Origin: Escherichia coli
GTDB taxonomy: Bacteria > Pseudomonadota > Gammaproteobacteria > Enterobacterales > Enterobacteriaceae
Reading direction: 5' to 3' (one strand)
DNA: 3,892 nucleotides
NCBI RefSeq assembly: GCF_003334815.1
Contig: NZ_QOWO01000079.1
Each line of letters starts with the position of its first letter. The first letter of the stretch is position 1. Positions 2,221-2,729 of this stretch are shown here, piece after piece. The position numbers and the translations under genes are program-made. The notes under the pieces are model-generated. The model was not told the DNA's origin. It ran no database searches and saw only the letters and a program-made list of their open reading frames with translations.

Positions 2221-2729
2221 TGATATCTCTCCCTGCCGGTTCGCGTATCTGGCTGGTTGCCGGTATCACCGATATGCGAAATGGTTTTAACGGCCTGGCA
2301 TCAAAAATTCAGAACGTCCTGAAGGATGACCCGTTCTCCGGGCATCTGTTCATCTTTCGCGGACGCCGGGGTGACCAGATAAAAGTGTTGTGGGCTGACA
2401 GCGACGGACTGTGCCTCTTCACCAAACGCCTGGAACGGGGCCGCTTCGTCTGGCCGGTCACCCGCGATGGAAAGGTGCACCTTACTCCGGCTCAGTTGTC
2501 CATGCTTCTCGAGGGCATCAACTGGAAGCACCCGAAACGAACAGAACGGCGCTGGAATCCGCATATAACCCGTTGTAAAGTGAGGATATGGACACCTCAC
2601 TTGCTCATGAGAATGCCCGCCTGCGGGCGCTGTTGCAGACGCAACAGGACACCATCCGCCAGATGGCCGAATATAACCGCCTGCTCTCACAGCGGGTGGC
2701 GGCTTATGCTTCCGAAATCAACCGGCTGA
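2220..2729 (+). CDS. tnpB: IS66-family TnpB (OrfB); 3' end probably frameshifted, so the open frame runs to 2729 instead of a native stop near 2566-2568
   Basis: MISLPAGSRIWLVAGITDMRNGFNGL...LFIFRGRRGDQIKVLWADSDGLCLFTKRLERGRF is classic IS66 Orf2. In the +1 frame a TAA at 2566-2568 would give a 115-aa product ending 19 nt before the tnpC ATG, which is the usual length and spacing. The observed frame instead overlaps tnpC by ~140 nt. Confidence 0.75.
   Translation: MISLPAGSRIWLVAGITDMRNGFNGLASKIQNVLKDDPFSGHLFIFRGRRGDQIKVLWADSDGLCLFTKRLERGRFVWPVTRDGKVHLTPAQLSMLLEGINWKHPKRTERRWNPHITRCKVRIWTPHLLMRMPACGRCCRRNRTPSARWPNITACSHSGWRLMLPKSTG

Follow-up and report, generated by a model that had tools for sequence, protein, structure and literature searches.

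The tnpB gene of an IS66-family insertion sequence on an IncI1 plasmid of Escherichia coli contains one extra G, in codon 110 (2548/2549), which moves the conserved stop codon out of frame and leaves a 169-codon frame running into tnpC. We consider it highly probable that this insertion is an inherited step in the neutral decay of an immobile IS66 relic, most likely acquired after the loss of tnpC, and not an artefact. The window, meaning the whole stretch of 3,892 bases analysed here, comes from an IncI1 conjugative plasmid; from 138 to 3892 it has 100% identity to NZ_LT985321.1 (plasmid RCS85_pI of E. coli ECOR 3). The element and its lesions are arranged as follows.

1485..3755, plus strand: IS66-family element (NCBIfam matches to TnpA, TnpB and the IS66 transposase; alignment to the full CP024481 copy)
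1570..2220, plus strand: tnpA, 216 aa, intact (NF038385, 283.8 bits)
2220..2729, plus strand: tnpB as now read, frameshifted, 169 codons (program-made list of open reading frames; PF05717, NF033819)
2548..2549, plus strand: GG for the single G of intact copies, one of the two being the insertion (single gap column in alignments)
2566..2568, plus strand: ancestral tnpB stop TAA, now out of frame (translation; the intact 115-aa TnpB in L001, the NZ_CP024481.1 copy, ends KRTERAGIRI)
2588..3277, plus strand: 5' part of tnpC, 229 codons, with a premature TGA (open reading frame list; NF033517 positions 5-126)
3258..3755, plus strand: continuation of tnpC in another frame, DDE transposase positions 131-279, cut at 3755 by an IS3-family insertion
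3756..3892, plus strand: terminal 137 nt of an IS3-family (IS1203/IS629-like) element, in tnpC (inverted-repeat comparison, record annotation)

As now read, tnpB stays open to 2729 and overlaps tnpC, as an earlier note on this DNA had described and as both the open reading frame list and the translation bear out. Translation of 2220-2590 gives ...KHPKRTERRWNPHITRCKVRI, and the frame one base on, translated from 2521, reads ...NEQNGAGIRI* and ends at the TAA of 2566-2568. From the ATG to this TAA there are 349 nt, and removal of one base leaves 348 nt, that is, the 115 codons plus stop that the note had expected from a +1 switch. The restored stop is separated from the tnpC ATG at 2588 by 2569-2587, the 19 nt that it had also given. 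A tnpB stop 19 nt upstream of tnpC is said to be the arrangement described for the IS66 family in ISfinder and by Han et al. in 2001.

The shift had been placed near 2548-2551, and the extra base indeed lies at 2548/2549, inside CGGCGCTGG (2547-2555). Nucleotide alignment to intact IS66-family copies shows one gap column, in agreement with the proposed single-base insertion. In the alignment to NZ_CP024481.1 the window has ACGGCGC where otherwise identical copies have ACGCGC, and across tnpA-tnpB this gap column is the only difference from the closest intact copy. The extra G distinguishes the window from the reference copies outright; it is no statistical signal, and chance plays no part in it. 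Codon 110 changes from CGC to CGG, both encoding arginine. Residues 1-110 of the frameshifted product are native and residues 111-169 form an out-of-frame tail in a frame that overlaps tnpC by 142 nt; these 59 wrong-frame residues take the place of the last five of TnpB, AGIRI, and are read from the spacer, from the ribosome-binding site of tnpC and from its opening 142 nt. Residues 9-106, the conserved TnpB domain, precede the lesion and are untouched. Relative to intact orthologues, an indel has moved a conserved stop out of frame, as in a pseudogene.

The element itself, called ISCro1-like by PGAP and IS679 by the GenBank depositors, has the IS66 layout, with tnpA, tnpB and tnpC consecutive on one strand (frames from 1570, 2220 and 2588). 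The TGA stop of tnpA (2218-2220) and the ATG of tnpB (2220-2222) share one base (TGATG, 2218-2222), and the tnpA DNA is identical to that of CP024481, where the product is WP_024244070.1. TnpB contains the IS66 Orf2-like domain (PF05717, residues 9-106, E = 4e-39) and matches NF033819 over residues 10-99 at 126.4 bits (cut-off 50). TnpC is an IS66-type DDE transposase: NF033517 matches both fragments, at profile positions 5-126 and 131-279, each falling under the whole-protein cut-off because the gene is broken, and Pfam LZ_Tnp_IS66, zf-IS66 and DDE_Tnp_IS66 are recorded on the TnpC product.

The left end, GTAAGCGCATC..., from 1485, opens with GTAAGCG as its terminal inverted repeat. The right part has been removed by the IS3-family insertion, and the right end, ...GAGCCGCTTAC, lies outside the window and is present in the full copies L001 and L002. 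The IS66 family normally makes an 8-bp target-site duplication. The flanks here are AGTTTTTT on the left (1477-1484) and, in L001/L002, GCTGAAAT on the right, with no duplication between them, and the element ends given are approximate. With the ISCro1 / IS679 / ISEc8 group of the Enterobacteriaceae the element shares its three-gene order, the overlap of tnpA stop and tnpB start, PF05717/NF033819, the IS66 DDE model and the GTAAGCG ends; unlike that group, the window copy carries three inactivating lesions, namely the extra G in tnpB, a 17-bp deletion in tnpC and the IS3-family insertion in tnpC. As a further difference, its TnpA is of the long, 216-aa form, with NF038385 covering residues 12-198 and the short IS66 TnpA model NF047595 only 93-210, and faint recorded Pfam helix-turn-helix hits hint at an extra N-terminal region of that type.

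The remainder of the window is plasmid backbone, together with a second copy of the IS3-family end.

1..137, minus strand: terminal 137 nt of an IS3-family (IS1203/IS629-like) element, in trbA (inverted copy of 3756-3892)
138..662, minus strand: 5' part of trbA, N-terminal 175 codons (open reading frame 135..662; trbA is annotated at the matching LT985321 and CP024481 positions)
799..956, plus strand: sok-type antisense RNA of a hok/sok (pnd-like) toxin-antitoxin locus (Rfam RF01794)
954..1106, plus strand: Hok/Gef-family toxin gene (open reading frame; annotated as Hok/Gef family protein WP_001303307.1)
1178..1429, minus strand: conserved hypothetical gene, 83 aa

The two window ends, 1-137 and 3756-3892, form a 137-nt inverted repeat with 100% complementarity, annotated in matching records as IS3-family or IS1203-family transposase. 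At 137/138 this sequence interrupts trbA, an IncI1 conjugation gene. The junction between IS end and trbA was found neither in LT985321 nor in any fetched locus, and no PLSDB match spans it. Its absence from LT985321 indicates that the window is a related but distinct sequence. Two readings suit these junctions: an additional IS copy in the source of the window, probably with loss of conjugation, or a repeat-bounded short-read contig. Directly upstream of the IS66-family element, at 799-1106, lies a complete hok/sok-type (pnd-like) post-segregational killing locus, with a toxin open reading frame of 50/51 aa and a sok RNA scoring 131.7 bits against RF01794 (gathering score 59).

The extra G is rare. 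All listed full-length E. coli matches (3,531 records) span 420 nt of subject against the 421-nt query. For 2200-3400, which is 1201 nt long in the window, the 25 best matches cover 1217 nt (1216 in one case) and consequently lack both the G and the 17-bp tnpC deletion; five of these 25 are otherwise identical to the window. A 41-mer centred on the G, which gives megablast no seed unless the G is present, had no match in 20,395 complete E. coli records and a single one among 72,556 plasmids (PLSDB), LT985321 alone, and the G-centred 40-/41-mer was found in no metagenome contigs. The lesion is specific to one lineage and is not conserved among homologues, again as in a pseudogene.

The protein data agree. 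TnpB homologues are 115 aa long in Escherichia, Salmonella, Serratia, Pantoea, Xenorhabdus and Aeromonas, and the clusters are overwhelmingly of this length, one with 1,697 members, which bears out the normal length of about 115 aa assumed in the earlier note. The exact 169-aa protein forms a single-member cluster (SPE08518.1; UniRef100_A0A2P9EMX4, labelled n=5). In principle, the 169-codon form could be ancestral and the 115-codon form derived from it by deletion. The chance of this is negligible in our view: it is a formal possibility only, set against a 115-aa length common to many genera, in clusters of up to 1,697 members, a 169-aa form confined to a single-member cluster, and contigs that share the tnpC deletion and are otherwise identical but lack the G. 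A search for intact references with the same extended tnpB frame, which would have spoken against an insertion, found none. Parts of the tail recur in a few further long TnpB proteins, all of them singletons, which depart from the native frame at codons that differ from one protein to the next. From these differing points of exit, they appear to be independent accidents that enter the same alternative frame and not a conserved isoform. Two such singletons in nr, SQD07440.1 and STG99344.1, with frame shifts at different codons, may be independent decay events or assembly indel errors.

A variant found in just one record of the curated collections invites the question of whether the base is real. 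In the study to which the ECOR-strain plasmids belong, 454 GS FLX Titanium sequencing at ~40x, with Newbler assembly, was applied to plasmids larger than 30 kb; RCS85 is not named there. LT985321 is 117.8 kb, and we accordingly take it to be 454-sequenced. Pyrosequencing by 454 is prone to homopolymer-length errors, and a change from G to GG is one of homopolymer length, so an over-call of this kind, with a true tnpB of 115 codons, has to be weighed. A two-base run is, however, unlikely to give a 454 error that survives into the consensus at 40x coverage, and the same base recurs in other assemblies. No contig was retrieved with the exact 169-aa product, probably because gene callers discard an open reading frame that overlaps tnpC. 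The 229-aa truncated TnpC, used instead, returned twelve contigs, three of which match the window at 100% identity and share with it the extra G, the 17-bp deletion and the IS3-family junction. These three concordant carriers come from two NCBI assemblies, GCA_965212685.1 and GCA_002190155.1, and from the Logan assembly of SRR3823859, in which case the contig is listed for 7 samples. The window, whose left junction is missing from LT985321, is a further separate sequence. In total, the extra G is present in at least five separate sequences, including LT985321 and the window, some of which may be assemblies of one strain (ECOR 3) resequenced; they would then confirm the base, not its spread in nature. 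We therefore regard a sequencing or assembly artefact, which the earlier note had named as something to exclude, as very unlikely. On the agreement of these assemblies, the extra G is almost certainly a real inherited mutation.

The inherited frameshift is accompanied by two further private lesions, both in tnpC. Between 3273 and 3274, 17 bp (GCTGGACTGGTGCCGTT) are missing, the deleted segment being flanked by GCTG direct repeats, and this deletion creates the premature TGA at 3275-3277. Further downstream, the reading frame is truncated by the IS3-family insertion at 3755/3756, which in LT985321 is a simple insertion with a 3-bp duplication, GCG, after which the remainder of tnpC resumes. Transposition of IS679 reportedly requires all three genes. 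The suggestion that the element is defunct is borne out by the deletion and by the insertion truncating tnpC.

The order of these events can be approached through intermediates. Apart from the missing G, the Logan contigs L007 (SRR21585334) and L010 (SRR30890577) have the same sequence as the window, with the 17-bp deletion in both; L007 in addition reads through 3755 without the IS insertion. Contigs that have the deletion and lack the G suggest that tnpC was inactivated first and that the G insertion, like the IS insertion, came later. From these two short contigs (1.3 kb each), and on the assumption that the 17-bp deletion arose once, we infer that tnpB most likely broke when tnpC was already dead, as neutral decay. 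Another of the contigs, L005 (Logan ERR11812238), was considered as a carrier of the deletion and rejected: it encodes the same 229-aa product, but through a TGG -> TAG nonsense mutation. This mutation (1024-1029 in that contig, about 3274 in the window) is an independent change at tnpC codon 230, where the 17-bp deletion begins.

The closest copy, on NZ_CP024481.1 (plasmid unnamed2 of E. coli 2011C-4315), occupies the same IncI1 site and has the same backbone, with trbA, hok, the hypothetical gene, the IS66-family element and a DUF6882 gene. It shows no substitutions relative to the window over 3,618 aligned bases. In contrast to the window copy, it has an intact 115-aa TnpB and lacks both the 17-bp deletion and the IS3-family insertion; its tnpC has a frameshift of its own further downstream (about 4765-4775 in L001), where A5 has become A4 relative to LT985321. 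By comparison of these lesions, copies at the IncI1 site appear to have been inactivated repeatedly and independently. In E. coli VTB97074v, a lesion-free version of the exact allele is found on a plasmid and on the chromosome, in 6 chromosomal places, and these copies suggest that the parental element is still active elsewhere.

Together, these data are consistent with the following course of decay. A single G entered codon 110 (2548/2549) in one lineage of an IS66-family element residing at a conserved IncI1 site. A ribosome in the shifted frame misses the TAA at 2566-2568, crosses the spacer, the tnpC ribosome-binding site and 142 nt of tnpC, and terminates at 2727-2729. In an intact element, such a frameshift would be expected to disturb the tight tnpB-tnpC spacing (a 19-nt spacer with GAGG at 2582-2585) and to occlude tnpC initiation. 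With tnpC already dead, the G insertion presumably had no further effect on mobility, and the immobile relic was also struck by the IS3-family element. The lesions fit a build-up of mutations in an element no longer selected for transposition.

The frameshift might instead be functional, through programmed +1 recoding or through an extended TnpB with a new role, either occluding tnpC or acting in trans. The conserved TnpB domain (residues 9-106) is intact, the extended open reading frame covers the tnpC ribosome-binding site and start codon, and the Arg codon CGG is rarely used in E. coli, all of which would suit such a role. Against it, the frameshift is confined to one lineage, and thousands of related copies lack the arrangement. 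Inspection by eye around ACAGAACGGCGCTGG revealed no slippery motif, in-frame stop or upstream Shine-Dalgarno-like stimulator; the features of a programmed frameshift are absent in that no motif is seen by eye near 2541-2555 and all related copies are without the arrangement. The tail is a wrong-frame reading of tnpC, and proteins with similar tails are singletons that enter this frame at different points. Furthermore, no copy with the G has a live tnpC, which leaves nothing to regulate in cis. We thus hold a functional frameshift to be less probable still than a sequencing artefact. To our knowledge, IS66 TnpB has no known biochemical role, and a look at recent literature on its function gave nothing useful. 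Equally doubtful is that the 169-aa protein, with its intact domain and Cys/Arg/Trp-rich 59-residue tail, could be expressed and act in trans, for example as a dominant negative; if it did, a decaying copy would damp the transposition of active IS66-family relatives.

Neutral decay of an immobile relic remains the reading that we favour, and the lesion is a pseudogenising frameshift of the ordinary kind, in an insertion sequence undergoing decay. As in frameshifted IS pseudogenes generally, a private single-base indel stands beside other disabling lesions in the same copy; set against such pseudogenes, nothing is notable, except that the lesion lies close enough to the 3' end to spare the conserved domain. 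Beyond annotation, the finding is of little importance. The 169-aa open reading frame is labelled 'IS679 transposase orfB' in GenBank, and the label should read frameshifted tnpB pseudogene; in the PLSDB table for the RefSeq record, neither tnpB nor tnpC has a protein entry, in keeping with a pseudogene call there. For the plasmid family, the extra G, the 17-bp tnpC deletion and the IS3-family insertion make up a small set of lineage markers for RCS85_pI-like IncI1 plasmids, and the intermediates display the stepwise decay of an immobilised insertion sequence.
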